Assembly (NCBI GenBank): GCA_964565625.1
Contig: CAZMFX010000001.1
Span: 3,058-58,792, forward strand
DNA length: 55,735 nt
Direction: 5' to 3'
From: an uncultured bacterium
Lineage (GTDB): Bacteria; Deinococcota; Deinococci; Deinococcales; Trueperaceae
Below the pieces are notes generated by a model. The model did not search any database. It had not been told where the DNA came from and saw only the letters and a program-made list of their open reading frames with translations. Positions 5,843 to 51,060 of the stretch are shown piece after piece. The translations under genes were made by a program, and so were the position numbers. Numbering within the stretch: the stretch's first letter is position 1; each line of letters opens with the position of its first letter.

Positions 5843-7442
5843 TGGCCGCTACAGGCCGAGATGGGACCTGCCGTACCCGTCAGCCAGACAGCCCGTCATG
5901 GCAGACGACGTCGTCGCGACCTCCCAACCGCTTGCCGCCCAGGCCGGGCTCGAGATGCTGCGCACAGGGGGCAACGCCGTGGACGCCGCCATCGCCACGG
6001 CGGCCGCCTTGGTCGTCGTGGAGCCGACAGGCAACGGGCTGGGATCCGACGCGTTCGTCATCGTCTGGGACGGGCAGCGCATCCACGGCCTCAACGCGTC
6101 CGGGCGCTCGCCTGCCGGGCTCGTCCCGGAGCGCTACTACGGCGGCGGCGAGGTGCCGCGGGTCGGCTGGGATGCCGTCATGGTTCCGGGCGCCGTGTCC
6201 GGCTGGCGCGCGCTCTCTTCCCGCTTCGGCCGCCTGCCCTTCGCACGTCTGCTCGAGCCTGCCGTTCGTTACGCCGAGGACGGGTTCCTCGTCTCCCCAG
6301 GCATCGCATCGCAGTGGGCGCGAGCGGCCTCGGCCCTCGGCGTACGTGCCGACTTCGCGGAGGCTTTCGTCGCGGGCGGCGCGGCGCCAGCGGCCGGCAG
6401 CAGGTGGCGCTCTGCCGAGCTGGCGCGGTCGCTGAAGCTCATCGCCGAAACGGGCGGAGACTCCCTCTACACTGGCGAGCTGGCGGAAGCGCTGGTGGCG
6501 CACGCGCGGGCCGAGGGCGCCGCGATGCGCGAGGCCGACCTGGCGGAGCACCGGTCGGAGTGGGTCGACACGATCGAGGCGAGCCACGGCGGCTTCGAAC
6601 TGCACGAGCTCCCGCCCAACGGGCAGGGCATCGCAGCGCTTCAGGCACTGAGGCTCGCGCAGTTGGCGGGCATAGACGAGACGGCCGTAGACAGCGCGGA
6701 CTGGTTCCACCTTCAGGTGGAGGCGATGAAGCTCGCCTTCGCGGACGCGCACCGCCACGTAGCGGATCCAAGGTACATGGACGTCTCGCCGGCCGACCTG
6801 CTGGACGACGCCTACCTGCGAGAGCGCGCTCGCCTGATAGACGCGAGGTCGGCAGGCGATCCCGGTCACGGCACACCCCGCCCCGGCGGCACCGTCTTCC
6901 TGTGCACCGCGGACTCGAACGGGATGATCGTGTCGTTCATCCAGTCCAACTACAGGGGCTTCGGCTCGGGGGTCGTTGTGCCAGGCACTGGCATCGCTCT
7001 CAACAACCGGGGTAACGGCTTCTCGACCGAGCGTGGGCACCCCAACGTCGTCGCCCCGGGTAAGCGCCCGTTCAACACGATCATCCCTGCCATGCTCACC
7101 GCGGGCGGGGAGGCGATAGCTGCTCTGGGAGTCATGGGCGGGCCGATGCAGCCCCAGGGTCACCTCCAGCTTGCTCTGCGGATGATCCAGGGCGGGCAGA
7201 ACCCGCAGGCGGCCAGCGACGCCCCGCGCTGGCAGGTTACGGGGGGCCTGGGGCTGTCGCTCGAACACGGCTTCCCGCCGGCGCTCGCCTCGGAGCTCGC
7301 CTCGCGCGGCCACGACGTGCGCATCGCTGAGCCGAGCGAGTCGCTGAGCTTCGGCGGCGCACAAGTCATAGCCCGCCTGCCGGGCGGCGGGTACGTGGCA
7401 GGCAGCGACCATCGCAAGGACGGCCAGGCTGCGGGCTTCTGA
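5835..7442 (+). CDS. ggt: Gamma-glutamyltransferase family protein (no signal peptide)
   Basis: 535 aa. Motifs: ATSQPLAAQAGLEMLRTGGNAVDAAIA, autoprocessing-site-like PGGTVFLCTAD, RPFNTIIPAM, GVMGGPMQPQGH. The GTG start overlaps the lrp stop by 8 nt. An alternative ATG lies at 5898. Confidence 0.9.
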   Translation: MSDGRYRPRWDLPYPSARQPVMADDVVATSQPLAAQAGLEMLRTGGNAVDAAIATAAALVVVEPTGNGLGSDAFVIVWDGQRIHGLNASGRSPAGLVPERYYGGGEVPRVGWDAVMVPGAVSGWRALSSRFGRLPFARLLEPAVRYAEDGFLVSPGIASQWARAASALGVRADFAEAFVAGGAAPAAGSRWRSAELARSLKLIAETGGDSLYTGELAEALVAHARAEGAAMREADLAEHRSEWVDTIEASHGGFELHELPPNGQGIAALQALRLAQLAGIDETAVDSADWFHLQVEAMKLAFADAHRHVADPRYMDVSPADLLDDAYLRERARLIDARSAGDPGHGTPRPGGTVFLCTADSNGMIVSFIQSNYRGFGSGVVVPGTGIALNNRGNGFSTERGHPNVVAPGKRPFNTIIPAMLTAGGEAIAALGVMGGPMQPQGHLQLALRMIQGGQNPQAASDAPRWQVTGGLGLSLEHGFPPALASELASRGHDVRIAEPSESLSFGGAQVIARLPGGGYVAGSDHRKDGQAAGF

Positions 7443-7517
7443 CGTATAACTGAAGTGTCAAGTCAACTCGGCCGTCACGGGGGTGGGGATCGGTGGACCC
7501 CCGGGAGAGGAGTCCCG

Positions 7518-8423
7518 ATGTACCTGGTATTTGGGGCAACCGGAACGCTCGGAGGACAGATAGCCAAGAAGCTGCTGGCTGCGGGTGAGCCTGTCAGGGT
7601 AGCCGTGCGGGAGGAGTCGCCGGCCCGCGTTGGGAACCCGCACACCGACCCCGATGAGCTGCGTGATCTGGGCGCCGAGGTCGTGCACGCTGACCTGCGC
7701 CACCCGGAGAGCCTGACCGCTGCCCTCGCGGGCGTCGACGTCGTCGTGAGCACGGCCTCCGGCACCAAGCGTATGCCGCCGGACACGACAGAGGCGGTAG
7801 ACAACGTCGGCACGGCCAACCTGGCGCGGGCAGCGGCTGGTGCGGGCGTGCGCCGCATCGTGCTCGTCTCTGCGGCTGGCGCATCCCCCGAGGCGCCGGA
7901 AGGCCTGTTCCGTGACAAGGGTCTGGGCGCCAAGGCCGTGGCGGAGAGCGGGGTACCGCACGTGATCGTCAGGCCAGGGCGCTACATGGGCGACTGGATC
8001 GGTTTCCTCGTCGGGACGCAGGTCCAGTCGGGCGACGTCGTCGAGCTGGTGGGAGACGGCTCGAAGGGCTCGTCCTTCGTACACGAGCCGGATGTGGCCG
8101 AGATCGTCTTCCATATCGCCCGTGACGCGGAGCGCGAATCCGGCGAGGTCGAGGTCGCGACCGAGACCGGCACGTACCCCGAGATAGTCGAGCGCTTCGC
8201 GCGCGCGACAGGGCGTGGCCTCGAGACGAGGTACGTACCCGTCGGGTCGAAGCTCACGACGCTGCCGGCGCCGCTAGTAGACGTCGTCACCAACCTGCTG
8301 ACGATCCACGCCGTCGCCCCTGCGTACCTGAACGTCGACCGCAGCGAGGCGGAGCGTTACGGCGTGCACCTGACCGGAATAGACGCCTTCGTCACGCAGA
8401 TGGCGCGGCCCCAACCGGCCTGA
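7518..8423 (+). CDS. NmrA-like / atypical SDR NAD(P)-binding protein
   Basis: ORF trimmed to ATG 7518 (GGGAGAGGAG upstream). The N-terminus [20 protein letters not shown] is a Rossmann GxxGxxG motif. Confidence 0.8.
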
Positions 8424-10755
8424 CGACGCCTTCGCGCCTCCGCTCGGGGCGCCTCTCGGCGCCGAAGCGCCTCAGCCTCAGGGCGTTGCCGACCACGAAG
8501 ACGCTCGACGCCCCCATGGCTGCCGCAGCCAGCATCGGCGAGAGGAGCAGGCCGGTGAACGGGTAGAGAGCGCCGGCAGCTACGGGGATCAGCACGACGT
8601 TGTACGCGAACGCCCAGAAGAGGTTCTGCCGGATGTTGCGCAGCACCGCCTTCGAGAGCCGCAGGGCGTTCGGCACGCCCTCGACGTCGCCGGACATGAG
8701 CACGACGTCCGCGGCCTCTATCGCCACGTCGGTGCCTGTGCCCAACGCCACGCCGACGTCCGAGGCCGCCAGCGCAGGCGCGTCGTTGATCCCGTCGCCG
8801 ACGAACGCGACCTTGGGTCCTCGGCTCTGGAGCCTGGTCACGATCTCGGCCTTGTCGCCAGGCATCACGTCGGCATGAACCTCGTCGATCTCGACGAGCC
8901 GGGCTACCGCGGCGGCGGTGCGGGCATCGTCACCCGTGACCATCACGGTCCGGACGCCGTGGGCGCGGAGCGCCGCCAGGGCCGGGACCGCCGAGGCCTT
9001 CACCGGGTCGGCCACGGCCATGACGCCGAGCGCCCGCGCAGGATGGTCGGAGCCGTCGCTCGCGGCTACGTACACCGGCGTCTTGCCGTCACGGGCGAAA
9101 GCGCCTGCCGCTTCCGTCAGGGTGCCGATGCTCACCCCGCGCTCTGAGAGGTACCTCGCCGACCCGACGATCACCTCGCGGCCCGAGACGTCGGCCCTCA
9201 CGCCGCGGCCAGTGACGGCAAGGAAGCCCGTGGCCGCCGGCACCTCGAGGCCCTCTTCACCAGCCGCCCCGACTATCGCAGCGGCGAGCGGGTGCTCGCT
9301 CGAGCGCTCGGCCGCCGCCGCCAACGCGATGACCTCCGCCCGCGTCACGCCAGCCTCAGCCGCCGGCACGACGTCCGTGAGACGGGGCTTGCCCTCCGTG
9401 ATGGTTCCGGTCTTGTCGAACGCGACAACCCCGACGCTCGCGAGCTCCTGCAGCGCAGATCCGTTCCTGAACAGCACGCCGAGCTCGGCCGCCTTGCCGG
9501 TCCCGACCATTATGGATACCGGTGTGGCGAGGCCCATCGCGCACGGGCACGCGATTATCAGGACGGCGACGGCGTTGACTATCGCCTGCCCCAGAGCCGG
9601 TTCGGGTCCCAACGCCCACCACGCCACGAACGCGAGCCCCGCCAGGACGAGCACGACCGGAACGAAGACCGCCACCACCCTGTCCAGGAGCGCCTGGATC
9701 GGCAGCTTCGCCCCCTGCGCTGCCTGAACCATCTCGATCACCTGCGACAGGAAGGTCTCGCTTCCCACCTTCGTCGCCCTGAACCTGAACGCGGAGTTGC
9801 CGTTGACCGTGCCGCCGACGACCTCGTCTCCTTCGCGCTTCAGGACGGGCGTGGGCTCGCCCGTGACCATCGACTCGTCGACGTACGACTCGCCGTCGAG
9901 CACGAGGCCGTCGACGGCCAGGCGCTCGCCGGGCCTCACGATGAGCACGTCCCCGCGCCTCACGGCGGCGACGGGCATCTCGAGTACCTCGCTTCCCCTC
10001 TCCACCCTCGCGGTGCTCGGACGCAAAGCCATGAGAGCGCGGATCGCGTCTCCCGTCCGGCCCTTGGCGCGCTGCTCGAGGTACCTGCCCAGCAGGACGA
10101 GCGTCACGATGACGGCCGACGCCTCGAAGTAGACGTGCGCCGAGCCTTCAGGCAGCCAGCCGGGCATGAAGGTAGCGACCGTCGAGTACCCGAAGGCAGC
10201 GCTGGTGCCGAGCAGCACGAGCGCGTTCATGTCGGGCACCCGCCGCATCAGCGAGTCCCACCCCAAGCGGTAGAAACGGCGCCCCGGGCCGAACTGGACC
10301 AGCGCCGCCAGCACGAAGAAGGCGACGTGCCTCGCCTGACCGGGCAGCCAGGCGCTAAGCCAGCCGTCCACGGCCGGCAGGAGCATCGCTCCCATCTCGA
10401 AGACGACGAGCGGCAGGCTGAGAGCGGCGGCGACGACTACGTCGCGGCCGAGGACGGCTACCTGCGCTGCCTTGGCGGCCTGCTCGGCCGCCAGACGGTC
10501 CTCGCCCTCGGCTTCGATCACCGAGTAGCCGGCGCCGGTCACCGCGTCTCTCAGCGCCTTCAAGTCGACCATGTCCGGCCGATACGAGACGCCGGCGCGT
10601 TCCGTCGCGAGGTTGACAGTCGCGCCCAGCACCCCGTCGACGTGCGTGAGCGCCCGCTCCACCCGCGCGACGCACGCCGCGCATGTCATGCCCGAGATCG
10701 ACAGCTCGGCGGTCGCCGTGCCGGACGCGCCCGCCTCTACACCCGTTTCCATCAC
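8392..10755 (-). CDS. copA: Copper-translocating P1B-type ATPase
   Basis: 787 aa. N-terminal HMA domain [17 protein letters not shown] motif ([13 protein letters not shown]), phosphorylation site DKTGTIT, hinge [10 protein letters not shown]. Its 3' end overlaps the convergent gene by 32 nt. Confidence 0.95.
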
Positions 10756-10756
10756 G

Positions 10757-11095
10757 TCACGCCCTGTACTTGAGGGCTTCCATCAGCTCTTCGACGATGC
10801 GATCGGTGTCGCCCCTCTGGGAAGCGGTCACGACGTGGTCCCGGACATGTGCCCTGAGGACGGCCTCCGACACCTTCCTCATCGCGCCCTGGACCGCGCT
10901 GAGCTGCTTGAGCACGTCGACGCAGTAGACGCTTTCGTCTTCGAGCATGCGCAGGACGCCCTCAACGTGGCCACGCACGCTCTTGAGCCTGAGCGCGGCC
11001 TGTTCCCTCGTCTCGGGGTCGAGGTGGAGGCAATGCGGCCCGCCTGGGGCATCGCCTTGGCCAGGGACCCCGCGCACGCCGACGACGTCGGCCAT
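10757..11095 (-). CDS. csoR: CsoR/RcnR family metal-sensing transcriptional repressor
   Basis: 112 aa. [40 protein letters not shown] is the CsoR signature, including the C-H-C ligand positions. The start overlaps the copZ stop (TGATG). Confidence 0.9.
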
Positions 11096-20918: not shown

Positions 20919-20942
20919 CCACGGCGTTGCGATCCGCCGTGG
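20919..20942 (+). terminator. Hairpin downstream of the aminotransferase gene
   Basis: CCACGGCG-TTGCGATC-CGCCGTGG (8-bp stem, 8-nt loop) begins 20 nt after the stop. No clear U-tract. Confidence 0.4.
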
Positions 20943-21014
20943 TCGTGCTGCGCAGCATTGAGCCGGGCGGCGCACCGTATCGCGCTACCACTCGCACCGC
21001 GACGAGGGCCCGCG

Positions 21015-21020
21015 TAGAAT
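21015..21020 (+). promoter_or_regulatory. -10-like hexamer TAGAAT upstream of the STAND gene
   Basis: TAGAAT lies in a locally AT-richer stretch 58 nt upstream of ATG 21078. I found no convincing -35, so this is weak. Confidence 0.25.
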
Positions 21021-21077
21021 CTGAGCGAGACCCTTTACTTCCGTAGAGTTCGTCTTGCGACGGGTCCAGGAGCGGTG

Positions 21078-24000
21078 ATGAGCGAGGCGATAGCTGTGAT
21101 CACCGTGGTTGGCGTCGTGGTGACGATACTCGCCAACCTCACTAACATCGCCCGGTTCCTGGCCGACAGGCGGGAGAAGCGGGGGACACGCGTCAGCGTC
21201 GCAGCAGCTGCGGTCGGCCCCGCCGTCCCAGTAGGCGCCCAGGCCGCGACGGCGCCACCCATAGGCATCCTCACACCCGACCGTCGCATCCGCGTCTTCG
21301 TCTCCTCCAGCCTTGGCGAGCTCTCCAGGGAGCGCGCCGCGGCGCGGGACGCCATAGAGGGCCTGCGACTCACGCCGGTGATGTTCGAGGATGGGGCAAG
21401 GTCGCACCCACCAGCCTCGGTCTACCGCTCGTACATCGGCCAGAGCGACGTGTTCGTCGGCATATATGGTGAGTCGTACGGCCAGGTCCCGCCCGGCGCC
21501 GACGTCTCCGGGCTGGAGGAGGAGTACACCCTGTCCACCGGGCTTCCCGCCCTGCTGTACGTACTGGACCCGGCCCCAGGGCGCGAGCCGCGGCTGGCGG
21601 CCCTGCTGGATCGCATAAAGCGGGAGGACAGGGCGTCGTACCGCAAGTACTCCGACCCTGCAGAGCTGTCGGAGCTGCTGGCCGAGGACCTCGCCGTCAT
21701 CATCACAGAGCGCTTCCACGGAGCAGGCGGCCGTACGCCAGGCCCAGCCCCGTCGGCGGAGCCGGTCCTGGAGCCACAGCACCAGACGCAACGGCGCAGA
21801 CGCGGCACGGGCGCGGCCTGGCCGGCCCTCGCGGACTACGACCAGCGGGTCGGTAAGCCTACGGCGCCGCGCGTGCCGTTGCCTCCGACGTCGTTCGTGG
21901 GACGTGACGAGCTGCTCGAGCAGCTGGCAGAGGTGATCAACGACCCCGAGGTGCGCCTCGTCACCGTGCACGGCCCCGGCGGGATAGGCAAGAGCCGCCT
22001 CGCCATCGAGGTAGCAGGCGTCGTCAGCGCCGGCTTCCCGGACGGCGTCGTGTTCGTCTCCCTCGACGCGGTCCGCGACGTCGACCTCCTCGCCGGCGAG
22101 ATACTCGCCGCTCTAGAGGTACGCGAGAACGAGTCGGGCGGCCCGGAGGAGCGCCTGGAGAGCTACGTCAAGGACCGTCGGATGCTTATCATCCTCGACA
22201 ACTTCGAGGGCCTGCTGGCAGGAGTGCCCCTGATCTCCAGGCTGCTGGCGCGCGCGCCCGCGCTGAAGCTGCTCGTCACGTCGCGGCAGATGCTGCGCGC
22301 TCGCGGAGAGGTGGCGTTCTCCGTGCCTCCCATGAGCCTGCCGGTCGACCGGCTCCCTGTAGACCCGGTCGCGGCGAAGGGCTTCGACGCCGTGCGGCTG
22401 TTCGTCGAGCGCGCCGAGGACGTGAGCCCCGGGTTCGAGCTCGACGAAGAGAACGTCGCCGCCGTCGTCGAGATATGCAGGCGCCTCGACGGGTTGCCCC
22501 TTCCCATAGAGCTGGCGGCCGCGCGGGTGCGCACGCTCCCGCCGAACGCTCTCCTCGAGAGGATGACGAAGCGCTTGCCGATGCTCACCGGCGGTCCGAG
22601 GGACGCTCCCGCCCGTCACCAGACCCTCCGCGCGACGATCGCATGGAGCTACGACCAGCTGGAGGAGGACCAGAAGAGGCTCTTCGCCCGGCTGGCCGTG
22701 TTCGACGGCGTCACGTACCTGGACGCCGTCGAGAGCGTCCTGGAGGACCCCGGTGTGCTCGACGGCATCGGCGCCCTGGTGGACGCGAGCCTGCTCATGC
22801 GTTTGTCGCCGGACGAGGAGGCTTACCACATGCTGGAGACGCTCCGGGAGTTCGCCTCCGAGCGGCTGGAGGAGCTGCCTGGCAAGGACGAGCTGCGCCT
22901 CACCCACGCGCGCTACTTCGTCGTCTTCGGTCGCATCGCGGGGGACGGCCTGCGCGGCGCGGAGCAGCAGGAGTGGCTGAGGCGCATGCGCGCCTCCGAT
23001 GGCAACCTGCGCGCCGCGCTCGCGACGCTGCTCGACAGCGGGCTCTCGACGGAGGCTCTGAGGCTGGCAGCCGGCCTGCGCCCGTACTGGCACCGCGTCG
23101 GCGCGCTCAGCGAGGGCAGGAGGTGGCTGCGCCGCGCCCTCGACGCTGGCCAGGACGCTCCCGCCGCGGCCCGCGGCGCAGCGATGCTGGCGGACGGCGT
23201 GCTCGCGTGGCGACAGGGCGACCTCAAGGGCGCGCGACCGCAGCTGGCTGCTGCGCTGGCTACGGCCAAGGAGCTGGGAGACGACTCCTCCGCGATGACG
23301 GCGCTGAGGAGCCTAGGGGCGATCGCCCAGAACGCGGCGAACTACGTGGAGGCAGAGCGGCTCATGCAGGAGAGCCTCGCCATCGCCGATAGGAACGGCG
23401 ACTGCGAGGCTCAGTCGAACACCTACCTGAGCCTCGGCAACGTGGCGCTCGACCAGGGGATGCACGAGGCCGCAGAGGAGCGCTACCGGCGTAGCCGCGA
23501 CCTCGCAGAGGAGGCCGGCGACACGCTCGGCTACGCGTACGCCATCGACAACCTCAGCGTCAGCGCATGGCACAGGGGCGACCTCGAGGAGGCGACGCGC
23601 CTGGCAGACCAGGTGATGGAGATCTACGAGGAGCTCGACCTACAGGGCGGGAGAGCCAACGTGTGGCACAGACGCTGTCTCGTCGCCATAGAGCGCGGCC
23701 ACCTCGAGGTCGCAGAAGCCGAGGGCGCGAAGGCCCTCGCCGTGCGTGAGGCTCAGGGAGAGGACCGCGGCGCGTCTTTCGTGCTCTACGACCTTGCCCG
23801 CGTTGCGCTGCTGCGCCGCGACCTGGGGACGGCGCGCGAACGCCTCGCACGGGGCCTGAAGCTCGCCATGCGCCAGGGCGCGCCGGCGATCGAGGTCCTC
23901 TACGTGGAGGGCGCCGCCTGGTACCTGAGCCTCCTCGGCAAGCACGAGGAGGCCTACGGACTGTTGGCAGGGGCGGAGGCCTGGAGGCACAGGCTCGGCG

Positions 24001-24167
24001 TACCGGTGGCGCCGGTGATAGTCGAGAGGCAGAGCCGGCTCGGCAGGATGCTCGAGGGTCGCCTCGACGCCTACACGCGCACCGCCATCGAGGCCCGTGC
24101 GCGCGACCTGGAGCCGGGGGCCCTGCTGGAGCGCGCCTCTCAGGTCCTCGTCAGGGCCCCGTCGTGA
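21078..24167 (+). CDS. Membrane-anchored DUF4062 (TIR-like) / NB-ARC STAND ATPase / TPR-repeat protein
   Basis: AGGAG SD 5 nt before ATG 21078 (an in-frame GTG lies at 21075).
- TM helix AIAVITVVGVVVTILANLTNIARFL, then RREKRG.
- DUF4062-like RIRVFVSSSLGELSRERAAARDAIEGL..PVMFEDGA..SDVFVGIYGESYG..GLEEEYTL..LPALLYVLD.
- Walker A GPGGIGKS (21972-21995), Walker B MLIILDNFE, LLVTSR, GLPLPIELAA.
- Winged-helix-like LFARLAVFDG.
- About 430 aa of TPR-like helical repeats. Confidence 0.9.
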   Translation: MSEAIAVITVVGVVVTILANLTNIARFLADRREKRGTRVSVAAAAVGPAVPVGAQAATAPPIGILTPDRRIRVFVSSSLGELSRERAAARDAIEGLRLTPVMFEDGARSHPPASVYRSYIGQSDVFVGIYGESYGQVPPGADVSGLEEEYTLSTGLPALLYVLDPAPGREPRLAALLDRIKREDRASYRKYSDPAELSELLAEDLAVIITERFHGAGGRTPGPAPSAEPVLEPQHQTQRRRRGTGAAWPALADYDQRVGKPTAPRVPLPPTSFVGRDELLEQLAEVINDPEVRLVTVHGPGGIGKSRLAIEVAGVVSAGFPDGVVFVSLDAVRDVDLLAGEILAALEVRENESGGPEERLESYVKDRRMLIILDNFEGLLAGVPLISRLLARAPALKLLVTSRQMLRARGEVAFSVPPMSLPVDRLPVDPVAAKGFDAVRLFVERAEDVSPGFELDEENVAAVVEICRRLDGLPLPIELAAARVRTLPPNALLERMTKRLPMLTGGPRDAPARHQTLRATIAWSYDQLEEDQKRLFARLAVFDGVTYLDAVESVLEDPGVLDGIGALVDASLLMRLSPDEEAYHMLETLREFASERLEELPGKDELRLTHARYFVVFGRIAGDGLRGAEQQEWLRRMRASDGNLRAALATLLDSGLSTEALRLAAGLRPYWHRVGALSEGRRWLRRALDAGQDAPAAARGAAMLADGVLAWRQGDLKGARPQLAAALATAKELGDDSSAMTALRSLGAIAQNAANYVEAERLMQESLAIADRNGDCEAQSNTYLSLGNVALDQGMHEAAEERYRRSRDLAEEAGDTLGYAYAIDNLSVSAWHRGDLEEATRLADQVMEIYEELDLQGGRANVWHRRCLVAIERGHLEVAEAEGAKALAVREAQGEDRGASFVLYDLARVALLRRDLGTARERLARGLKLAMRQGAPAIEVLYVEGAAWYLSLLGKHEEAYGLLAGAEAWRHRLGVPVAPVIVERQSRLGRMLEGRLDAYTRTAIEARARDLEPGALLERASQVLVRAPS

Positions 24168-24195: not shown

Positions 24196-24861
24196 CTAGT
24201 CCCTGCTCCCCATGAAGATCGAGAGGTAGTAGAGCAGGTACATTATCGAGCCCGCCGCTGCCGCGACGTACGTGAGGGCCGCGGCGTTGAGCACCTGGCG
24301 TGTGCCGCCTACCTCGCTCTGCGTAGCGATGCCTAGCGTGCCGAGCTGCTTGGCGGCTCGGCTGCTGGCGTTGAACTCTACGGGCAGCGTGACTATCTGG
24401 AACAGGACCGCGGCGCCGAAGAGCAGTACGCCGACCTGGACCAGACCAAGGTAGCCGATTATCGCCCCGAGGATTATCAGCCACGGCGCGAAGTTGGCGC
24501 CTAGGGTCGCGACGGGCACGAGAGCCGTGCGCAGCTGCAGCGGGGCGTAACCGTTGGCGTGCTGGATGGCGTGCCCCACCTCGTGCGCCGCCACGGCGTG
24601 CGCCGCCACGCTGGCGCCACGGAAGTTGGCCGTGGAGAGGGAGACCACCTTCTTGCGCGGGTCGTAATGGTCGGTCAGCTGACCGGGCACCTCGACGACC
24701 CTCACATCGTTGAGCCCGTTGGAGTCGAGGATCATCCTGGCCGTCTCGGCGCCCGTTAGGCCGGAGGCCGCCTGTACCTTCTGCCACTTGCCGTACGTGT
24801 TCCGTAGGTAGCCCTGCACGAGCATCGTGCCTACGAGCAAGACGATGAAGATAAGGAACAT
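24196..24861 (-). CDS. YugP-like putative neutral zinc metallopeptidase (membrane-associated)
   Basis: 221 aa. N-terminal TM, then LTGAETARMILDSNGLNDVRV..LTDHYDPRKKVVSLS and the HExxH motif AAHEVGHAIQH. C-terminal TMs. GAGGGAGGAAG SD. Confidence 0.85.
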   Translation of the reverse strand: MFLIFIVLLVGTMLVQGYLRNTYGKWQKVQAASGLTGAETARMILDSNGLNDVRVVEVPGQLTDHYDPRKKVVSLSTANFRGASVAAHAVAAHEVGHAIQHANGYAPLQLRTALVPVATLGANFAPWLIILGAIIGYLGLVQVGVLLFGAAVLFQIVTLPVEFNASSRAAKQLGTLGIATQSEVGGTRQVLNAAALTYVAAAAGSIMYLLYYLSIFMGSRD

Positions 24862-25013: not shown

Positions 25014-25223
25014 CTATGAACCCAGCCCGGCGATCGACCAGAGCAGCCCAAGACCGAAGACGAGCAGCCCGAAGACCATGAGGACCATGTTGACGAGCAT
25101 GCCCTCGATCTGCCTGGAACCGGTCGTCTCGAGGCTACCGGAGGAGACCGTCGCGAACATCACGGTGCGGGCTATGCCCAAGAGCAACGCTGCCCCGCCG
25201 ACGACCATCATCATGGTGATCAT
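25014..25223 (-). CDS. Hypothetical 69-aa two-TM membrane protein
   Basis: These are the last 69 codons of the otherwise spurious ORF 25014..26072. ATG 25223 is preceded by GGGAGG. Sequence: MITMMMVVGGAALLLGIARTVMFATVSSGSLETTGSRQIEGMLVNMVLMVFGLLVFGLGLLWSIAGLGS, two hydrophobic helices. Confidence 0.55.
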   Translation of the reverse strand: MITMMMVVGGAALLLGIARTVMFATVSSGSLETTGSRQIEGMLVNMVLMVFGLLVFGLGLLWSIAGLGS

Positions 25224-35357: not shown

Positions 35358-37324
35358 CAGCGGTCCTCCTGCGATGACGCCAGACCGGTCCGCTGCCACG
35401 GGGCAACCAGGCGCTGCACCAGGCCGACGAGCGACACGAGCCCGATGCCGAGAAGGGCGGAGATGCCGAGGAGTATCCAGACGTCTGCGACGTCCCCGGC
35501 CTGAACCTGGCCGATTATCGCGTAGCCGAGCCCAAGGCGGTTGTTCGACTCGACCTCGGCGACGAGGGCGCCGACCAGCGCGGCGGCCGCGCCCAGCTTG
35601 AGGCTCGTGAACAGGTAAGGGACCGCGGCAGGGAACCTCAGCTTGAGGAAGGACTGCACGGGCGAGGCCGCGTACGCCTTCATCAGGTCGAGCGCAAGAG
35701 GGTCGACCGACCGGAGGCCCGTCACCGTCCCGACAGTTATGGGGAAGAAGGCGATGTATGCGCCAACTATCGCGGCCGGCACGAGGCTCGTCTGCACCGT
35801 GACGCCCAGGTTACCGAGCACCGCGACGAGCACGGGGACGAGCGCGATGACGGGGATCGTCTGCGACGCGATGACCCACGGCAGGAGCGCGCGCTCGAAC
35901 GGCCGGACCCGCACGAAAAGCACCGCGAGCAGCACGCCGATCACGGCCCCGAAGGCCAGGGACACGAGCGTGCCTGCCGCCGTATACAGGGTGGCCCTCA
36001 CGACGTTGCGACTGTCGGAGAACGGGTAAGCGGTGAAGAACGGCACGAGGCGCTCGGCGATCCAGTTCGGGAAGGGGACCGGATGCTGCGGCATGCTCAT
36101 GAAGCAGTCGAACGCGCTCTCCCCGCACCCGGGGCGCGAGTAGTAGGTGTACGAACGCGCCCAGACAGCCTCGCCCGGCTCGGGCGGCTCGGCCAGCGTC
36201 ACGGTGCCGTCAGCGGGGTCGCTTACCAGGTAGTCGGGGTGCTGCCTGACGCTGGCGTTGCGGGCCGGCGGCGCAGCGAACGTTATCGAGTTGCCGTCGC
36301 GGTCGTAGTCCGCGCCCTCCTCCAGCTGTCGACCGTCGACGGTGACGATGCCGCGGTCAGAGGCGAACGTGAAGGTGCTCCTCGTCCCGTCGACGCGCTC
36401 CTCGGGGCGTTCGTCGCCGCCCACGAGCTCCCGATCGCCGACGAAGAGGCGGCGTGCGGGGTCGCGCTCCACGAGCGGGACGTGCTGTAGCCTGAACTGC
36501 CTGTTCGCACCGTCCGACCCGCCTGTCAGCCCCTCGGCAAGGGCGACGTGGGAGGTGGCGACGCGTGGCGCCGTCGCGGTAGGCGTTGCGAGCACGACGG
36601 TGTCGCCGCCCTCCGTCAGGAGCCCGTAGTCGCCGGTGACGAGGCGAACCGCGGCGTTGAAGGGCGGCGCCGCTTCGAAGGTGACCGTGTCATCAGACCG
36701 TTCGAAGCCTTCCCCCTCGAGCACGGGTTCGTCGCCGACGATCGCCGTTGCCGGGATCGCGGAGCCGTCCAACGCTTCGCCAGAGCCGGGAACCGTGAAG
36801 GTGCGCCTGACGCCGTCCGCCCTCTCGACCGCAGCCGCGACACCGGGTCGCAGCAGGTCGTCGCCCAGGTAGATGGGCGAGTCGACGGCAGCTCCGTCCG
36901 TCGCCCGGAACAGGCGGCCGGTCATGCCGATGTCATCGCCTTCTACGGGCTCGAGGGGCGCTCCCAACTCCGCGGCCCGGGATCCCAACGGCTCCCGCAG
37001 TACGGCGTCGCCCCCGTCGATGCTCACCCCGGTGGCCACGACGCGGTCTCCCGTCACCAGGACGGCGCTGCCGCGCGCCAGGCCACTAAGGACCGCGTCG
37101 ACCGCGGGCCCAGAGCCGAGCGGCAACCTCGTTCCCGAGGCGGCAGCGTCTGCCACTGGCAACGCTGCGACGGTCGCGCGCTCCCAGTTGCTCAGGTTCT
37201 CCATGCGCTGCCTGGCGAGCGGCATGCCCAGCAGGAGCGCCACCGGGTACATGAGGGCCAGCAGCACCGCAACGACGCCGATGACGGGCCACGCCATGCG
37301 AAGCCACGCGCGCGCTGGGCTCAC
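35357..37324 (-). CDS. NitT/TauT-family ABC transporter permease with ~410-aa N-terminal extracytoplasmic insert
   Basis: ORF 35357..37750 trimmed to GTG 37324, 2 nt after the ATPase stop; an alternative ATG lies at 37297. One N-terminal TM (AWPVIGVVAVLLALMYPVALLLG), then a ~410-aa soluble region with repeated motifs. C-terminal permease core (LDLMKAYAASPVQSFLKLRFPAAVPY). Confidence 0.8.
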   Translation of the reverse strand: MSPARAWLRMAWPVIGVVAVLLALMYPVALLLGMPLARQRMENLSNWERATVAALPVADAAASGTRLPLGSGPAVDAVLSGLARGSAVLVTGDRVVATGVSIDGGDAVLREPLGSRAAELGAPLEPVEGDDIGMTGRLFRATDGAAVDSPIYLGDDLLRPGVAAAVERADGVRRTFTVPGSGEALDGSAIPATAIVGDEPVLEGEGFERSDDTVTFEAAPPFNAAVRLVTGDYGLLTEGGDTVVLATPTATAPRVATSHVALAEGLTGGSDGANRQFRLQHVPLVERDPARRLFVGDRELVGGDERPEERVDGTRSTFTFASDRGIVTVDGRQLEEGADYDRDGNSITFAAPPARNASVRQHPDYLVSDPADGTVTLAEPPEPGEAVWARSYTYYSRPGCGESAFDCFMSMPQHPVPFPNWIAERLVPFFTAYPFSDSRNVVRATLYTAAGTLVSLAFGAVIGVLLAVLFVRVRPFERALLPWVIASQTIPVIALVPVLVAVLGNLGVTVQTSLVPAAIVGAYIAFFPITVGTVTGLRSVDPLALDLMKAYAASPVQSFLKLRFPAAVPYLFTSLKLGAAAALVGALVAEVESNNRLGLGYAIIGQVQAGDVADVWILLGISALLGIGLVSLVGLVQRLVAPWQRTGLASSQEDR

Positions 37325-37326
37325 GG

Positions 37327-38193
37327 TCAGTACCCCGCCGTTCGCTGCAGCGGCGCGTCGGCAGGCGGCGCCTCTCCCCCTCCGTCGTGCGGCGCGCCCC
37401 TTAGCGCCTCGCGCACGCGGGTGGCCAGCTCGAAGAACCGCTCGCTCTCGCGCGTCTCGGCCGTGCGGGGGTAAGGCAGGTCGACATCTATGATCTCGCG
37501 GATGCGGCCGGGCCGCGGCGTCATGACGACTATGCGCGATGAGAGGAAGACAGCCTCGGCTATCGAGTGGGTGACGAAGACGACCGTCTTCTTCGTCTCC
37601 TGCCACAGGCGGAGCAGCTCCATGTTCATCGCCTCGCGCGTTATCTCGTCGAGGGCGCCGAACGGCTCGTCCATCAGCAGGAGCTTGGGGTCGAATGCCA
37701 GCGCCCTGGCTATCGAGACGCGCTGCTGCATGCCGCCGGAGAGCTGCCACGGGTAGGAGCGCTCGAAGCGCTCCAGGTCGACCATCTTCAGGAGCTCACG
37801 TGCGCGCTCCCGCCTGCGCGACTTGGGGAACCCCATTATCTCGAGCGGCAGGGTGACGTTCGCCAGGACGCTGCGCCACTCGTACAGCACCGGCGCCTGG
37901 AAGACGTAACCGTACTCGCGGTCCTCGCGCGCCTGCCTGGGCGTCTTGCCGGCCACCTCGATCTCGCCAGTCGTCGGCTCGACGAGGTCGGCAACCAGAC
38001 GCATCAGCGTGGTCTTGCCGCATCCGGACGGTCCGATGAGGCTCACGAAGTCGCCGTCCGCGACGTCCAGGTTCGCACCCTGGAGCGCCACGGCCTCTCC
38101 CTTGCCGACGCGGAAGACCATGTCGACGTCCCTGACGGAGATTATCGGCCCGCTGTCCGGCCGACGGTCTCCTCTCGCCCGGCTCTCAGCCAC
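37327..38193 (-). CDS. NitT/TauT-family ABC transporter ATP-binding protein
   Basis: 288 aa. Walker A GPSGCGKTT, signature LSGGMQQRV, Walker B LLMDEPF. The start overlaps the dihydropyrimidinase stop by 8 nt. Confidence 0.9.
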   Translation of the reverse strand: MAESRARGDRRPDSGPIISVRDVDMVFRVGKGEAVALQGANLDVADGDFVSLIGPSGCGKTTLMRLVADLVEPTTGEIEVAGKTPRQAREDREYGYVFQAPVLYEWRSVLANVTLPLEIMGFPKSRRRERARELLKMVDLERFERSYPWQLSGGMQQRVSIARALAFDPKLLLMDEPFGALDEITREAMNMELLRLWQETKKTVVFVTHSIAEAVFLSSRIVVMTPRPGRIREIIDVDLPYPRTAETRESERFFELATRVREALRGAPHDGGGEAPPADAPLQRTAGY

Positions 38194-44127: not shown

Positions 44128-45858
44128 ATGGAACAACCGGGCCATGGCGTCGCTCACGCCGACTACTACGACCTGGGAAAGTACGGCAGACAGGTGCGCA
44201 CCCGGTCGGCCGAGGCGCAGGTCTGGTTCGACCGTGGCCTCAACTGGTGCAACGGCTACAACCACGAGGAGGCGATCCGTTGCTTCCAGCGCGCCGCAGG
44301 GCTCGACCCGGACTGCGCCATGGCGCACTGGGGGGTCGCGTACGCCGCAGGCTGCAACTACAACAAGCCGTGGGAGGCGTTCCTCGAGGAGGAACGCACG
44401 CAGGCGCTGGCGCAGGCTCACGCGGCGACGCTCCGCGCCAACGAGGCGATAGCGCGAGCCGGTGACGACGCATGGCCGGCGGAGGCCGCCCTGGCGGCCG
44501 CGATCTCGAGGCGCTATCCCTCGCCGGCCGCCGGCGACGGCGCCCCGTTCCAGGCGTGGAACGACGACTACGCAGACGCCATGCGCTCCGTGCACGCGGC
44601 CTTCCCGGACGATCACGACGTCGCAGCGCTCTTCGCAGAGGCCCTCATCAACCGCACGCCATGGCAGCTATGGGACCTCGCGACGGGCGAGCCACGTGAC
44701 GGCGCGGACACGCTCGAGGCCCAGCGGGTGCTGGAGCATGCCATCGCAACGCGCCGGGCAGACGGCATGTCGCCGCATCCCGGACTGCTCCACGTCTACA
44801 TCCACACGATGGAGATGTCCCCGCGACCGGAGGCCGCGCTGATGGCAGCCGACGCGCTGAGGGACCTGGTGCCCGACTCCGGTCACCTGCGCCACATGGC
44901 GTCGCACATCGACGTGCTCTGCGGCCTCTACTACGACTCCCTCGTCGCGAACGAGCGCGCGATAGCGGCAGACGACGCGTACTTCGCGACCAGCGGCGAC
45001 GGCTTCTACACGCTCTACAGGTGCCACAACATCCACTTCAAGATCTACTCTGCGATGTTCCTCGGTCAGCTCGCGCCCGCGCTCGAAGGCGCGAGGCAGC
45101 TGGAGGAGGCGCTGCCCGAGTCCCTGCTGAGGGTCGAGATGCCTCCGATGGCTGACTGGCTGGAGGGCTTCGTGAGCATGGGCGTGCACGCGCTGATAAG
45201 GTTCGGCCGCTGGCACGACATCCTCGCCCTGCCGCTCCCGGAAGATCCGCGCCTCTACTGCGTCACGACCGCTATGACGCGCTACGCGCGCGGCGTGGCG
45301 CTCGCCGCGTTGGGAGACGTCCGGCTGGCGGGTGAGGAGCGCACGGCGTTCAGGGCCGCTGCGCAGCTGGTGCCGGAGAGCCGCACGGTGTTCAACAACA
45401 CGTGCCGCGACATCCTCGGCGTCGCATCGGCGATGCTCGACGGCGAGCTCGAGTACAGGAGGGGCGAGCACGAGAAGGCGTTCGCGAGCCTGCGCGACGC
45501 GGCCCGGTTGGCAGACGAGCTGCCATACGACGAGCCGTGGGCATGGATGCAACCCGTCAGGCATGCGCTCGGCGCACTGCTCCTCGAGCAGGGCCGCGCC
45601 GAGGAGGCGCTCGAGGTCTACAGGGACGACCTCGGCCTCTCCGGCAGGTTGCCACGGGCGCTCCAGCATCCGGAGAACGTCTGGGCGCTGCACGGCCTCG
45701 TCGAGTGCCTGGAGCGACTGGGGCGGCACGACGATGCCGCACCGTTCGCGCAGCGACTCGAGATCGTACGTGCCAGGGCAGACGTCGCGATCGACTCGTC
45801 TTGCTTCTGCCGGCTCGAGACCGGCTCGGGCAACGGGGAAGCCCACCACTGCTGCTAG
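44128..45858 (+). CDS. Conserved hypothetical TPR-like protein with Cys/His-rich C-terminus
   Basis: 576 aa. GAGGAGAGGG SD. Helical-repeat composition, motif CAMAHWGVAYAAGCNYNKPWEAF. The tail is DSSCFCRLETGSGNGEAHHCC. Confidence 0.8.
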   Translation: MEQPGHGVAHADYYDLGKYGRQVRTRSAEAQVWFDRGLNWCNGYNHEEAIRCFQRAAGLDPDCAMAHWGVAYAAGCNYNKPWEAFLEEERTQALAQAHAATLRANEAIARAGDDAWPAEAALAAAISRRYPSPAAGDGAPFQAWNDDYADAMRSVHAAFPDDHDVAALFAEALINRTPWQLWDLATGEPRDGADTLEAQRVLEHAIATRRADGMSPHPGLLHVYIHTMEMSPRPEAALMAADALRDLVPDSGHLRHMASHIDVLCGLYYDSLVANERAIAADDAYFATSGDGFYTLYRCHNIHFKIYSAMFLGQLAPALEGARQLEEALPESLLRVEMPPMADWLEGFVSMGVHALIRFGRWHDILALPLPEDPRLYCVTTAMTRYARGVALAALGDVRLAGEERTAFRAAAQLVPESRTVFNNTCRDILGVASAMLDGELEYRRGEHEKAFASLRDAARLADELPYDEPWAWMQPVRHALGALLLEQGRAEEALEVYRDDLGLSGRLPRALQHPENVWALHGLVECLERLGRHDDAAPFAQRLEIVRARADVAIDSSCFCRLETGSGNGEAHHCC

Positions 45859-49373: not shown

Positions 49374-49637
49374 TCAGCCTTGGGGCTCCGTCCGGGACCC
49401 CATGCCTCCGTCCTGCGATCCGCTCGAGCCCCTCTCGTCTTCGAGAGCGAACGAGATCTTCGTGTTGACGCGCCACTCGGCGATGCGGTCGCCATCGACG
49501 ATCGCCTGCATGTCCTTGATGTAAATGGTCTTGATGTTCCTCACGGAGCGGGAAGCTTCTCGTAGCGCCGTCTGCACGGCATCTTCGAAGCCCTTCTCTG
49601 ACTGCGCCAGTACCTCTATCACCTTGACGACGGACAT
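49374..49637 (-). CDS. Dodecin-family flavin-binding protein
   Basis: These are the last 87 codons of the spurious ORF 49374..50240. GGAGG SD before ATG 49637. MSVVKVIEVLAQSEKGFEDAVQTALREASRSVRNIKTIYIKDMQAIVDGDRIAEWRVNTKISFALED is the dodecin pattern. Confidence 0.8.
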   Translation of the reverse strand: MSVVKVIEVLAQSEKGFEDAVQTALREASRSVRNIKTIYIKDMQAIVDGDRIAEWRVNTKISFALEDERGSSGSQDGGMGSRTEPQG

Positions 49638-49719
49638 GTCGCACCTCCATCCAGCTTGGAGACGACCGTAGCAGCAGCGCCTTAGCGCCCCATTAGGCGG
49701 CCGAGTACTATGCGCTGGG

Positions 49720-51060
49720 TTGGCGACAGACGTCCTCTTCCCCTCCGTCTCGCGCCTGGTGCGCTTCGCCCTGCCCGCGATGCTCGCCGGGATGACCGTC
49801 CCGCTGATGGGCCTCATCGACGTCGCGGTGCTCGGTAGGCTCGGCGAGCCGGCCATCATCGCGGCCGTCGGCGTGGCCGCCACGATCTTCACGACGATCG
49901 CCTGGTCGTTCAGCTTCCTGCGCTTCACCACTACCGGCCTCGTCTCCCAGGCGGCGGGTCGCGGCGACGACGCAGGCATCGTTGTAGAGGGGTTGCGCCC
50001 GCTCGTAGCAGCGCTCGTCGGCGGCGTGGCCCTGGTGCTGCTCAGGGAACCGCTGATCTCGCTGGGGCTGGCGCTCATCGCCCCCGAGCCCGATGTCGCC
50101 GCCCACGCACGCACGTACTTCGGGATCCGGATCTTCGGGGCGCCGCTCACGCTCTCCCTGTACGCGATGCAGGCGTGGCTCATGGGAACGGGCAGGCCGC
50201 GCGCGCTGCTGGCCTCGCAGGCTTTCATGACGGCGTTCAACGCGGCTCTAAGCGCCTACCTCGTGCTGGTCCGCGACATGGGCATCGGCGGGGCGGCGAT
50301 CGCCACCGTATCGGCGGAGGTCGTGACGGTGGCGATCATCGTCGCCATCGCGTTGACGCACGTACCGCTCGCCCGCTGGCGCGCCGCGAAGGGGGTTCTG
50401 GACGGCAAGGCTTGGCGGCGCCTTCTGTCTGCCAACACCGACCTGGTCATAAGGACCGTCCTGCTCAGCCTCAGCCTCGCGCTGCTCAACGAGCGCAGCG
50501 CGCGACTCGGTACCGACGTGCTCGCGGCCAACCAGCTCCTCCTCCAGTCGTACCTGCTCGTCGCGACGCTCATAGACGGCGTGTCGCTCGGCGTCGAGGT
50601 ATACGTCGGGCGCGCTGTCGGGGCGAGGAACGCCGACGCGCTACGCCACGTCGTCTCGCGCGGCGCTGTCATGGCGATCCTCTGGGGTGTCGCCGTCGCG
50701 GCGCTGGTCGCCGCGGTGCCAGGCGTCTATCTCCCACTGCTGACGAGCAACGATGAGCTGATAGCGCTGGCGCGCTCGTACTGGGGCTGGCAGGTCGTGA
50801 TGCCCCTGGTGGCGGTGTGGGCGTTCCTGTGGGACGGCGTCTACTTCGGCTCGGTGCGCACGTGGGCGCTGCGGAACTCGATGATCGTGTCAACGGCGAT
50901 ATACGTCGTAGCGGCCTTCGCCCTGGGGGCCGTCATGGGCAACCATGGTCTATGGCTGGCGCTGGCCGTGCAGCTCGTCGCCAGGGCGGCGACGCTTTCG
51001 CTTGCGTGGCCCGGCCTGGTGCGGACGGTCGAGTCCTCGGCCGTGGCCGTTCCGACATAG
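49720..51060 (+). CDS. MATE family efflux transporter (DinF-like)
   Basis: 446 aa, 12-TM-like. N-terminus LVRFALPAMLAGMTVPLMGLIDVAVLGRLG. TTG start. Confidence 0.9.
   Translation: MATDVLFPSVSRLVRFALPAMLAGMTVPLMGLIDVAVLGRLGEPAIIAAVGVAATIFTTIAWSFSFLRFTTTGLVSQAAGRGDDAGIVVEGLRPLVAALVGGVALVLLREPLISLGLALIAPEPDVAAHARTYFGIRIFGAPLTLSLYAMQAWLMGTGRPRALLASQAFMTAFNAALSAYLVLVRDMGIGGAAIATVSAEVVTVAIIVAIALTHVPLARWRAAKGVLDGKAWRRLLSANTDLVIRTVLLSLSLALLNERSARLGTDVLAANQLLLQSYLLVATLIDGVSLGVEVYVGRAVGARNADALRHVVSRGAVMAILWGVAVAALVAAVPGVYLPLLTSNDELIALARSYWGWQVVMPLVAVWAFLWDGVYFGSVRTWALRNSMIVSTAIYVVAAFALGAVMGNHGLWLALAVQLVARAATLSLAWPGLVRTVESSAVAVPT

Follow-up and report, generated by a model that had tools for sequence, protein, structure and literature searches.

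DUF4062 was reported in 2026 preprints as a TIR-like NADase domain, found in Swarozyc, Evangelion and TEP1. For KpSwz and TEP1 the NADase activity has been demonstrated biochemically, with residues E97 and E1008, respectively, being essential; for Eva01, NAD+ depletion belongs to its authors' model, and in one study three prokaryotic TeTIR (TEP1-type) domains showed no activity in vitro when taken on their own. Both TIR and TM effectors are established outputs of STAND sensors in the Avs and bNACHT systems. With the DUF4062 activity only just shown, its STAND-coupled forms, TEP1 and NWD1/2, are mechanistically unsolved, and a compact bacterial DUF4062-NB-ARC-TPR protein would offer a tractable model for STAND control of a DUF4062 NADase. 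The complete gene for one such protein (21078..24167, + strand; 1029 aa plus stop, from the ORF listing and translation) lies in the window, the whole stretch of 55,735 nucleotides of Trueperaceae DNA analysed here. Its domains run from an N-terminal TM helix through a linker, DUF4062 and NB-ARC to a TPR region, an order that a preliminary description had read from the sequence and that Pfam and the AF2 model (mean pLDDT 85) bear out. The literature searched holds no characterised protein with this combination, as that description had supposed. With a probability of roughly 55%, we propose that the protein is an NLR-like switch, tethered to the membrane and encoded at a fixed chromosomal site, and that oligomerisation activates its NAD+ hydrolysis.

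Relation to described DUF4062 and STAND proteins

The characterised bacterial DUF4062 proteins, Swarozyc (KpSwz) and Evangelion (Eva01-04), share with the Trueperaceae protein a compact TIR-like core and the catalytic motifs F (βA) and E-x-x-Y, in which E147 is the counterpart of KpSwz E97. Beyond this core the likeness ends: they are short (about 200-330 aa), lack STAND, TPR and TM parts, and carry a helical AUX sensor for portal or replication proteins, whereas here a disordered linker leads from DUF4062 to STAND and TPR. Their genes are transferred horizontally and reside in defence islands or on plasmids, unlike the chromosomally fixed Trueperaceae gene. In TEP1, NWD1, NWD2, NPHP3 and the bacterial TEP1-like proteins the NTPase belongs to the NACHT clade and the TeTIR domain is extended (200-350 aa, against about 150 aa for the Trueperaceae DUF4062). 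These proteins have no TM anchor, while ours lacks TROVE and VWA; WD40 was likewise not detected, and NACHT stays below threshold (13.4 bits versus 26.7, E 0.068), setting the protein apart from the TeTIR-NACHT-WD40 arrangement.

Avs and bNACHT proteins and the plant TIR-NB-ARC-LRR receptors RPP1 and ROQ1 follow the same tripartite effector-NOD-repeat logic, but the Trueperaceae gene matches no PADLOC model of such a system, shows no island or HGT signature and has TPRs instead of LRRs. The STAND regulators AfsR/SARP, LAL/MalT and PknK of Actinomycetota and Deinococcus possess a homologous NOD+TPR module, with DNA-binding (BTAD, LuxR) or kinase domains as output where the Trueperaceae protein has DUF4062 plus a TM helix. 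DUF4062, NB-ARC and TPR are also combined in soluble proteins of Cyanobacteria, Actinomycetota, Chloroflexota and Thermaceae, annotated "tetratricopeptide repeat protein", which are 37-44% identical to the Trueperaceae protein and begin DUF4062 with the same TPDQRLRVFVSS. They lack the TM+linker extension of about 65 residues, and the C-terminal half of their TPR region shows no sequence relationship to that of the Trueperaceae protein (16-29% identity). In total, the protein has more than 6000 homologues.

Effector, switch, sensor and anchor

The DUF4062 TIR-like domain (residues 66-214; 21273..21719, +) matches PF13271 over residues 73-152 with 64.1 bits (cut-off 24.7; E 1.4e-17), and a phmmer search connects it with the DUF4062 of KpSwz (10wc_A) and with TEP1 (11gz_A). 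In the AF2 model (pLDDT 91.5) it takes the TIR-like β-α x5 topology, a five-stranded parallel β-sheet with five helices. Foldseek places this model in the flavodoxin/TIR fold, with TM-scores of 0.52-0.64 to TIRs (best for plant TIRs, 0.62-0.64), and flavodoxins equal TIRs by E-value (about 1e-3), so that Foldseek alone does not separate the two. The first glutamate of GLEEEY, E147 (codon 21516..21518, +), is invariant in an alignment of 69 homologues and aligns with KpSwz E97, the position occupied by alanine in the E97A structure 10wc_A; it is thus the predicted catalytic residue, equivalent to KpSwz E97 and TEP1 E1008. The preliminary description had placed DUF4062 among TIR-like domains, which the KpSwz and TEP1 publications and the conserved glutamate now substantiate. 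Where present, DUF4062 is also the domain that changes least between distant homologues (55-64% identity). By analogy with KpSwz and TEP1, neither of which is NB-ARC-linked, we infer that the domain is an NADase.

Downstream, residues 265-600 (21870..22877, +) form a STAND NTPase of the AP-ATPase/NB-ARC branch, composed of NBD, helical domain and winged helix and recognised by Pfam (NB-ARC, 28.8 bits versus a cut-off of 23.5), by profile matches and by Foldseek. Its Walker A motif GPGGIGKS (21972-21995, +; K305 codon 21990-21992) and its Walker B motif LIILDNFE (22185-22208, +; D374) are accompanied by an RNBS-B-like TSR at residues 401-403. In the 69-sequence alignment, G299-K305 and TSR are invariant and D374 is at least 90% conserved. 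The positions of GPGGIGKS, of the K305 codon and of the EEE triplet (21516-21524) are those originally reported. Foldseek relates the module to PH0952, RPP1 (E 6e-10), Apaf-1 and MalT, and profile comparison to Apaf-1 (1.5e-10) and, over 700 residues, to AfsR (E 6e-39), in keeping with an NBD-HD-WHD fold and, C-terminal to it, a repeat sensor. This last region (residues 601-1029; 22878..24164, +) comprises about 11 helix pairs, matches TPR_12 (E 1e-22) and TPR_MalT, and forms a regular series of helical hairpins in the AF2 model (pLDDT above 90).

The AfsR match, together with plasmid matches to LuxR and PknK regulators, corroborates the AfsR/LuxR-type assignment made for the ATPase+TPR module at the outset. 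At first glance it also recalls a transcription regulator of the AfsR/LuxR kind with N-terminal domains added, and precomputed Pfam annotation lists a weak HTH_77 in orthologues. However, HTH_77 corresponds to the winged helix within the STAND module itself, Pfam detected no DNA-binding output domain, whether BTAD, LuxR or another, the NCBIfam AfsR model reaches 73 bits where 1430 are required, and a membrane tether rules out a simple DNA-binding role. We therefore consider such a regulator highly improbable.

The tether lies in the N-terminal membrane module (residues 1-36; 21078..21185, +), where a hydrophobic helix (residues 4-22; Kyte-Doolittle mean 2.41 over 19 residues) precedes a conserved ANLTNIARF..RREKR juxtamembrane stretch. 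AF2 models residues 2-37 as a helix, and across 47 homologues the flank charges are -0.5 on the N side and +4.0 on the C side. Given the positive-inside rule, this asymmetry points to a single-pass signal anchor with the N-out/C-in topology already predicted in the preliminary description. G12, V13, N20, I24, R26 and R32 are each conserved in at least 90% of these homologues. A 37-aa phmmer query against 1.84 billion representatives, a search of low sensitivity for so short a query, matched members of the protein's own family only, and the idea of a portable helix module was dropped. An amyloid (BASS-type) signalling motif was likewise set aside: the segment is uniformly hydrophobic, and adjacent genes contain no matching motif.

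The gene and its chromosomal setting

The reading frame extends from 21075 or 21078 to 24167 (+), giving 1030 or 1029 aa depending on the start chosen. ATG 21078 is the likely start codon, because an AGGAG Shine-Dalgarno sequence (21067..21071, +) is visible 6 nt upstream, as noted earlier, and orthologues begin MSE... The GC3 of 0.88 equals that of the neighbouring genes and is host-like, which marks it as a genuine host gene. The other expression signals proposed for the locus fared less well. The letters TAGAAT are present at 21015-21020, but no sigma-70-like site passes a scan; the upstream region is only mildly AT-richer (GC 0.62 over 85 nt versus 0.68-0.71); and the supposed terminator, with a stem of 8 bp (20920-20943), lacks a T-run, its folding being no better than that of shuffled sequence (z = 0.03). 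With consensus scans empty and the hairpin on a par with shuffled sequence, we dropped both the promoter and the terminator.

As the preliminary description had it, an aminotransferase gene (Aminotran_3) lies upstream and a convergent peptidase gene downstream. The latter (24196..24861, -; Zn_peptidase_2, Pfam E 1e-85) encodes a YugP-type membrane metallopeptidase and adjoins the STAND gene in all Trueperaceae loci examined, every time at the same site among transport and metabolic genes. This site is shared by 13 distinct orthologues, at identities from 82% down to 50%. The STAND gene is thus chromosomally fixed and vertically inherited at a housekeeping locus in the Trueperaceae clade. The peptidase adjacency is clade synteny: no STAND homologue was found near the peptidase in 80 peptidase loci of other taxa (598 kb), locus L115 has the peptidase but no STAND gene, and the TM-clade locus L024 (47% identity) has the STAND gene without the peptidase. 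Functional pairing was set aside on these grounds, and any such link is speculative.

The original proposal was of an immune or conflict gene, and strict synteny had been named beforehand as counting against it; the fixed locus among Trueperaceae orthologues is just such a pattern. Could the gene nonetheless be a mobile antiphage system of the classical one-gene kind (Avs/Swarozyc type), pan-immune cargo in which the TPRs recognise a phage protein and the NADase aborts infection? The effector-STAND-repeat architecture would suit this role, as would the abortive antiphage function of the characterised bacterial DUF4062 NADases; in one relative, a Schlafen-like ATPase gene is inserted two genes upstream; and the STAND gene evolves faster than its neighbours (identity 76-82% versus 84-97%; ω 0.16-0.19 versus 0.03-0.15). 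Against this stand the single site kept down to 50% identity, the host-like GC3, a conserved sensor (below) and a 55-kb window in which no defence, integrase, transposase or mobile-element genes were found. PADLOC, one of the recommended checks, returned only the generic TPR model PDLC01169 and no Avs/bNACHT system model, and a fusion of the present type was not found on PLSDB plasmids or among INPHARED phages. A mobile antiphage system is accordingly quite unlikely, and the earlier conflict-island reading falls with it. An immune or abortive role as such is possible, with the context not in its favour. For annotation, this locus advises caution, in that a protein built as "effector-STAND-repeat" should not on that ground alone be taken for the product of a mobile defence gene.

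Selection, domain loss and a possible mechanism

Pairwise NG86 dN/dS, calculated domain by domain, shows purifying selection on every folded part of the protein (ω 0.08-0.25) and hence a functional gene. The TPR region, at 0.09-0.24, is no exception, so the sensor is not hypervariable. Diversifying selection was discarded, no ω exceeding 0.25 outside the linkers. The tree of positional orthologues shows the whole of DUF4062 lost at least six times, in proteins that retain the TM helix (with G12, N20, R26 and R32 strongly conserved), the STAND module and the TPRs. The preliminary description had made its claim conditional on orthologues keeping the catalytic residues, and here the entire domain has repeatedly disappeared. 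Since otherwise intact orthologues dropped DUF4062 again and again, the retained function does not depend on the predicted NADase. The conserved core is thus TM+STAND+TPR, and the predicted NADase is an accessory output discarded in several lineages. Orthologues at a single locus with and without the predicted NADase, all with the TM helix, constitute a natural experiment that can reveal the role of the NLR core itself and a possible effector function of the membrane tether.

These losses also bring into view a non-immune, membrane-associated signalling STAND, in which the TM+STAND+TPR core would act as switch or scaffold in response to a cue, either endogenous or from the envelope, perhaps partnered by the YugP peptidase, with DUF4062 as an optional NAD+-tuning output. 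Survival of the core through the losses would fit such a role, as would vertical inheritance in a housekeeping neighbourhood, a sensor under purifying selection and a TM helix conserved in sequence down to its polar Asn; the nearest STAND modules elsewhere are the regulators AfsR, LuxR/LAL and PknK, and in the literature STAND clades alternate between defence and non-defence roles. Yet the DUF4062-less forms keep no output domain besides the TM helix, YugP adjacency is absent outside the Trueperaceae clade, and the invariant catalytic glutamate and high conservation of DUF4062 argue for an active toxic enzyme. To our knowledge, such an enzyme has no housekeeping use in bacteria. We regard a non-immune role as a real, if minor, possibility.

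In the NLR-like switch that we favour, the protein would be held on the cytoplasmic side of the cell membrane by its one N-terminal helix (N-out/C-in), kept monomeric at rest by the TPR array and an ADP-bound NB-ARC/AfsR-type module. Binding of a ligand to the TPRs would allow nucleotide exchange and oligomerisation, clustering the DUF4062 TIR-like domains together with the TM helices and their conserved mid-membrane Asn. The clustered DUF4062 domains could then split NAD+ into ADP-ribose and nicotinamide, and the loss of NAD+ would lead to growth arrest or cell death, a regulated cell-death or abortive-type output. Weighing against this mechanism are the repeated DUF4062 losses, a setting with neither defence genes nor traces of horizontal transfer, the lack of a PADLOC system match and a sensor that is not hypervariable. 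It is tempting to speculate further that the Asn-containing helix is itself an effector or signalling element and DUF4062 a second, dispensable one, the protein being a membrane-embedded NLR, domesticated and fixed in this lineage of Deinococcota as a watcher for phage entry or envelope stress. Upon STAND oligomerisation the helix might assemble into a bundle or pore; alternatively, it might serve as a handle by which the neighbouring YugP-type protease frees the cytosolic part. This extension we consider fairly unlikely.

The linkers and one sublineage provide a few further observations. Linker 1, Ala/Pro-rich and disordered (residues 37-65; 21186..21272, +; pLDDT below 50 for residues 35-67), has only 7-45% identity among orthologues and ω of 0.3-1.0. 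Linker 2 (residues 215-264; 21720..21869, +), disordered as well (pLDDT below 50 for residues 214-263), contains a conserved GAAWPALADYDQR motif at 21810-21848, which is kept in 23 of the 47 TM-clade proteins, some DUF4062-less ones included. Within DUF4062, the window's own sublineage departs from the family at three conserved positions, S109, Q136 (where 65 of 69 sequences have W) and P138, which counts against the proposed NADase switch.

Gene boundaries and domain architecture

The ORF listing gives a 1030-codon reading frame on the + strand at 21075..24167, whose translation matches the protein text of the preliminary description; the Walker A motif (21972-21995), the K305 codon and the EEE triplet (21516-21524) also lie where that description had placed them. 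ATG 21078 is the likely start codon on the sequence: an AGGAG stands at 21067-21071, six nt upstream, and the close orthologues all start with MSE/MTE. With a GC3 of 0.88, the gene is indistinguishable from its flanking genes and can therefore be regarded as real and compositionally native. The upstream signals fared less well. The TAGAAT hexamer does occur, and GC content dips slightly over the 85 nt before the gene (0.62 versus about 0.70), but a promoter scan of this region returned zero passing sigma-70-like sites; as for the supposed terminator behind the aminotransferase gene, its stem is 8 bp long, lacks a U-tract and has no folding advantage over shuffled sequence (z = 0.03). As a side observation from a small sample, codons 1-35, which encode the membrane helix (21078-21182), show a dS of 0.16-0.42 compared with about 0.8 elsewhere in the gene in 4/4 pairwise comparisons, which could reflect constraint on the 5' mRNA.

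Each of the domains originally predicted is backed by a Pfam match above the curated cut-off, namely DUF4062 at residues 73-152 (GTG numbering; 64.1 bits, E 1.4e-17), NB-ARC (28.8 bits, cut-off 23.5), TPR_12 in four stretches (E 1.1e-22) and TPR_MalT. The full-length AlphaFold2 model, computed with 69 homologues as input (mean pLDDT 85; residues numbered from ATG 21078), consists of an N-terminal helix (residues 2-37), a disordered linker (35-67), an α/β domain of five strands and five helices (72-213), a second disordered linker (214-263), an NBD-HD-WHD module (277-600) and about 11 regular helical hairpins (603-1025). By profile comparison, the STAND and TPR parts are homologous to AfsR (E 6e-39 across ~700 positions) and more distantly to Apaf-1, and their structural matches include PH0952, RPP1, Apaf-1 and MalT. 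A role as a transcription factor was rejected because a DNA-binding output is absent. Within the second linker, just before the STAND module, lies the motif GAAWPALADYDQR (21810-21848, residues 245-257), which is kept in 23/47 proteins of the TM clade (the homologues with an N-terminal membrane helix and linker) and also occurs in some forms that lack DUF4062; a possible role is that of a linear motif, such as a peptide for autoinhibition or partner binding.

A putative NADase domain on a membrane helix

The placement of DUF4062 among TIR-like domains, which the preliminary description had proposed, was confirmed experimentally in 2026 by Osinski et al., who report that DUF4062 is a TIR-like NADase, that TEP1 is an active NADase, that a phage portal activates the antiphage protein KpSwz (Swarozyc) to cause abortive infection, and that DUF4062 directly precedes the NACHT ATPase in NWD1, NWD2, TEP1 and NPHP3. 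Ibarra-Chavez et al. describe Evangelion, a plasmid-borne DUF4062 defence family with the motifs F11 and E87-Y88. In a third preprint the TEP1-type domain is called TeTIR and associated with NACHT and WD40/TPR, and three isolated prokaryotic homologues are found inactive in vitro. According to a survey published in Nature in 2026, STAND clades switch between defensive and non-defensive functions, and TM effectors exist.

In the window protein, single-sequence matches to the DUF4062 domains of KpSwz (10wc_A, E 0.03) and TEP1 (11gz_A, E 0.06) are weak. The alignment register to KpSwz is nevertheless convincing: E147, the first glutamate of S-G-L-E-E-E-Y, aligns with the position of the KpSwz E97A mutation. 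The 69-sequence homologue alignment shows no variation at S144, E147 or Y161 and almost none at G145, L146, E149 and Y150. Modelled separately, residues 63-221 reach a pLDDT of 91.5 and are classed by Foldseek as a flavodoxin/TIR fold. Since flavodoxins rank first by E-value (2e-4) and plant and animal TIR domains by TM-score (RPS4/RRS1 0.62-0.64, RUN1 0.62, SARM1 0.52-0.58), the fold search alone is not decisive; the predicted family membership rests on the HMM match and the motif register. At three positions conserved in ≥90% of the 69 homologues, the window protein and its nearest two to four relatives depart from the family: P109S (codon 21402-21404), W136Q (21483-21485) and A138P (21489-21491). 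Position 136 is W in 65/69 homologues and Q in the window sublineage. The three substitutions hint at relaxed constraint on the domain in that sublineage.

The hydrophobic core of the N-terminal helix has a mean Kyte-Doolittle value of 2.41 across 19 residues. Among 47 helix-bearing homologues, the mean net charge is -0.5 in the N-flank and +4.0 in the 20 residues after the helix, the positive-inside pattern of a predicted N-out/C-in anchor. The helix is conserved at the sequence level, beyond hydrophobicity alone, with G12, V13, N20, I24, R26 and R32 each retained in ≥90% of the helix-bearing homologues. Because Asn can drive the association of TM helices, we infer that this helix may self-associate or bind a membrane partner. 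A 37-residue phmmer query against 1.84 billion representatives did not find the helix module outside its own family. At the molecular level, the reading as a membrane-tethered NLR-like switch with a predicted TIR-like NADase output is thus well supported; by analogy with TIR-NLRs, SARM1 and KpSwz, oligomerisation would lead to NAD+ hydrolysis.

Fixation at one locus and repeated domain loss

The family counts more than 6000 homologues, and soluble DUF4062-NB-ARC-TPR proteins of ~850-970 aa are common in Cyanobacteria, Actinomycetota, Chloroflexota and Thermaceae. The TM clade, defined by an extension of ~65 residues, comprises about 47 clusters, whose named members and related genome loci come from Trueperaceae MAGs plus one labelled Deinococcaceae. 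Five species-level genome representatives carry the gene at exactly the site seen in the window, with flanking proteins 84-97% identical versus 76-82% for the STAND protein, and the site is kept for orthologues at 72%, 63%, 58%, 52% and 50% identity (loci L016, L017, L018, L111 and L020). The STAND gene there follows a Liv-type ABC operon, Aminotran_3 being present in some cases and missing in others, and converges on the Zn_peptidase_2/YugP gene. Beyond the STAND-peptidase pair the gene order is rearranged, bringing in a nos cluster, DAO or a phosphonate ABC transporter. Sampled from the peptidase side, the STAND gene is present at 2/3 loci; the third, where the peptidase is 66% identical and the surrounding genes are entirely different, lacks it. 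Outside the clade the pairing is lost: 0/80 metagenomic peptidase loci contain a STAND gene, and one TM-clade member at 47% identity (L024) sits in a different gene context.

No integrase, transposase or PADLOC-recognised protein was found in the rest of the 55-kb window, and tblastn against PLSDB plasmids and INPHARED phages never matched the DUF4062 fusion, the matches being limited to the STAND part within LuxR-, PknK- and similar regulators. Three unannotated 'Bacteriophage sp.' contigs of human faecal origin (MT838110.1, MT835530.1 and MT836681.1) have 37-41% identity to the STAND part, their STAND-like region lacking DUF4062. In an 80%-identical relative (L002), a Schlafen/AlbA_2 plus HATPase_c_4 gene (6190-7881, -) is inserted just 5' of the aminotransferase gene and an SMR efflux gene (9562-9882, +) lies between the aminotransferase and STAND genes, the locus being otherwise syntenic; this may be a place where variable or defence-like genes gather locally.

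Pairwise NG86 comparisons of the window gene with four orthologues gave an ω of 0.16-0.19 for the whole gene and 0.03-0.15 for eight neighbours, so the gene is functional and somewhat faster-evolving than its neighbours, and a gross arms-race signal is absent. By region, ω is 0.09-0.14 in the NBD, 0.08-0.16 in HD-WHD, 0.09-0.13 in the C-terminal and about 0.22 in the N-terminal half of the TPR, 0.125-0.25 in DUF4062 and 0.24-1.0 in the two disordered linkers. Among close orthologues, the TPR C-half is 84-87% identical versus 77-79% for DUF4062.

DUF4062 is wholly absent from eleven clusters among the matches listed (844-891 aa), which keep the TM helix, the RRERR stretch, the low-complexity linker, an intact GPGGIGKS STAND module and the TPR; the AAWPAL motif survives in some of them. 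The same locus houses at least three of the eleven as positional orthologues, namely L022/P0033, L026/P0019 and L107, the last with an 844-aa protein that has the same N-terminus as P0034. In an NJ tree of the STAND and TPR core, drawn without bootstrap values, the DUF4062-less forms branch at six or more distinct points among the TM-clade proteins that carry DUF4062. The outgroups possess the domain too, and parsimony favours independent in-frame losses. A 1215-aa homologue (P0067) combines DUF4062, STAND and TPR with Guanylate_cyc (PF00211), a dual-output variant.

What would count against the candidate immune or conflict sensor first proposed, strict core-gene synteny and orthologues losing the catalytic apparatus, is in part what we found, and a mobile conflict system is therefore downgraded to a quite improbable reading. 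Repeated loss of DUF4062 means that the unit always kept by selection is TM+STAND+TPR, and the main rival explanation is that this core serves non-immune membrane signalling, which we consider possible if rather doubtful. We favour, at a probability of roughly 55%, a chromosomally fixed switch for regulated death or an abortive-type response, with a trigger that is probably conserved. The DUF4062-STAND-repeat combination is already known from TEP1/NWD and thousands of annotated bacterial proteins, and the DUF4062 chemistry is published. In the DUF4062, TeTIR and STAND literature searched, no TM-DUF4062-NB-ARC-TPR protein is described; the new elements are a subfamily of NB-ARC/TPR proteins with a TM anchor, the fact that it is fixed at one locus across a Deinococcota clade, and a naturally occurring set of orthologues that lack the NADase domain.

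Other genes in the window

The 55 kb encode transport and metabolism throughout, including peptide, Liv, phosphonate and NMT1 ABC systems, GGT, CopA/CsoR, pyrimidine catabolism, aldehyde dehydrogenase and PmbA. The copper-resistance pair (8395-11095, -) consists of a CopA-type P1B ATPase (HMA and E1-E2 ATPase) and a CsoR-family metal-sensing repressor. A conserved 69-aa ORF (25017-25223, -) adjoins the Zn peptidase gene in the window as well as in L001, L002, L016 and L017; its product is a small protein with two TM segments (MITMMMVVGGAALLLGIA...LLVFGLGLLWSIAGLGS) and zero Pfam matches. Given the domains detected in them, two proteins (35360-37750, - and 49377-50240, -) are unusually long: in a 797-aa ABC permease the sole Pfam match, BPD_transp_1, covers the last ~190 residues, and in a 288-aa protein a Dodecin domain occupies residues 204-267 only. 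A second TPR protein of 576 aa (TPR_12, TPR_8; 44128-45855, +) lies between the aldehyde dehydrogenase and Cys/Met PLP-enzyme genes.
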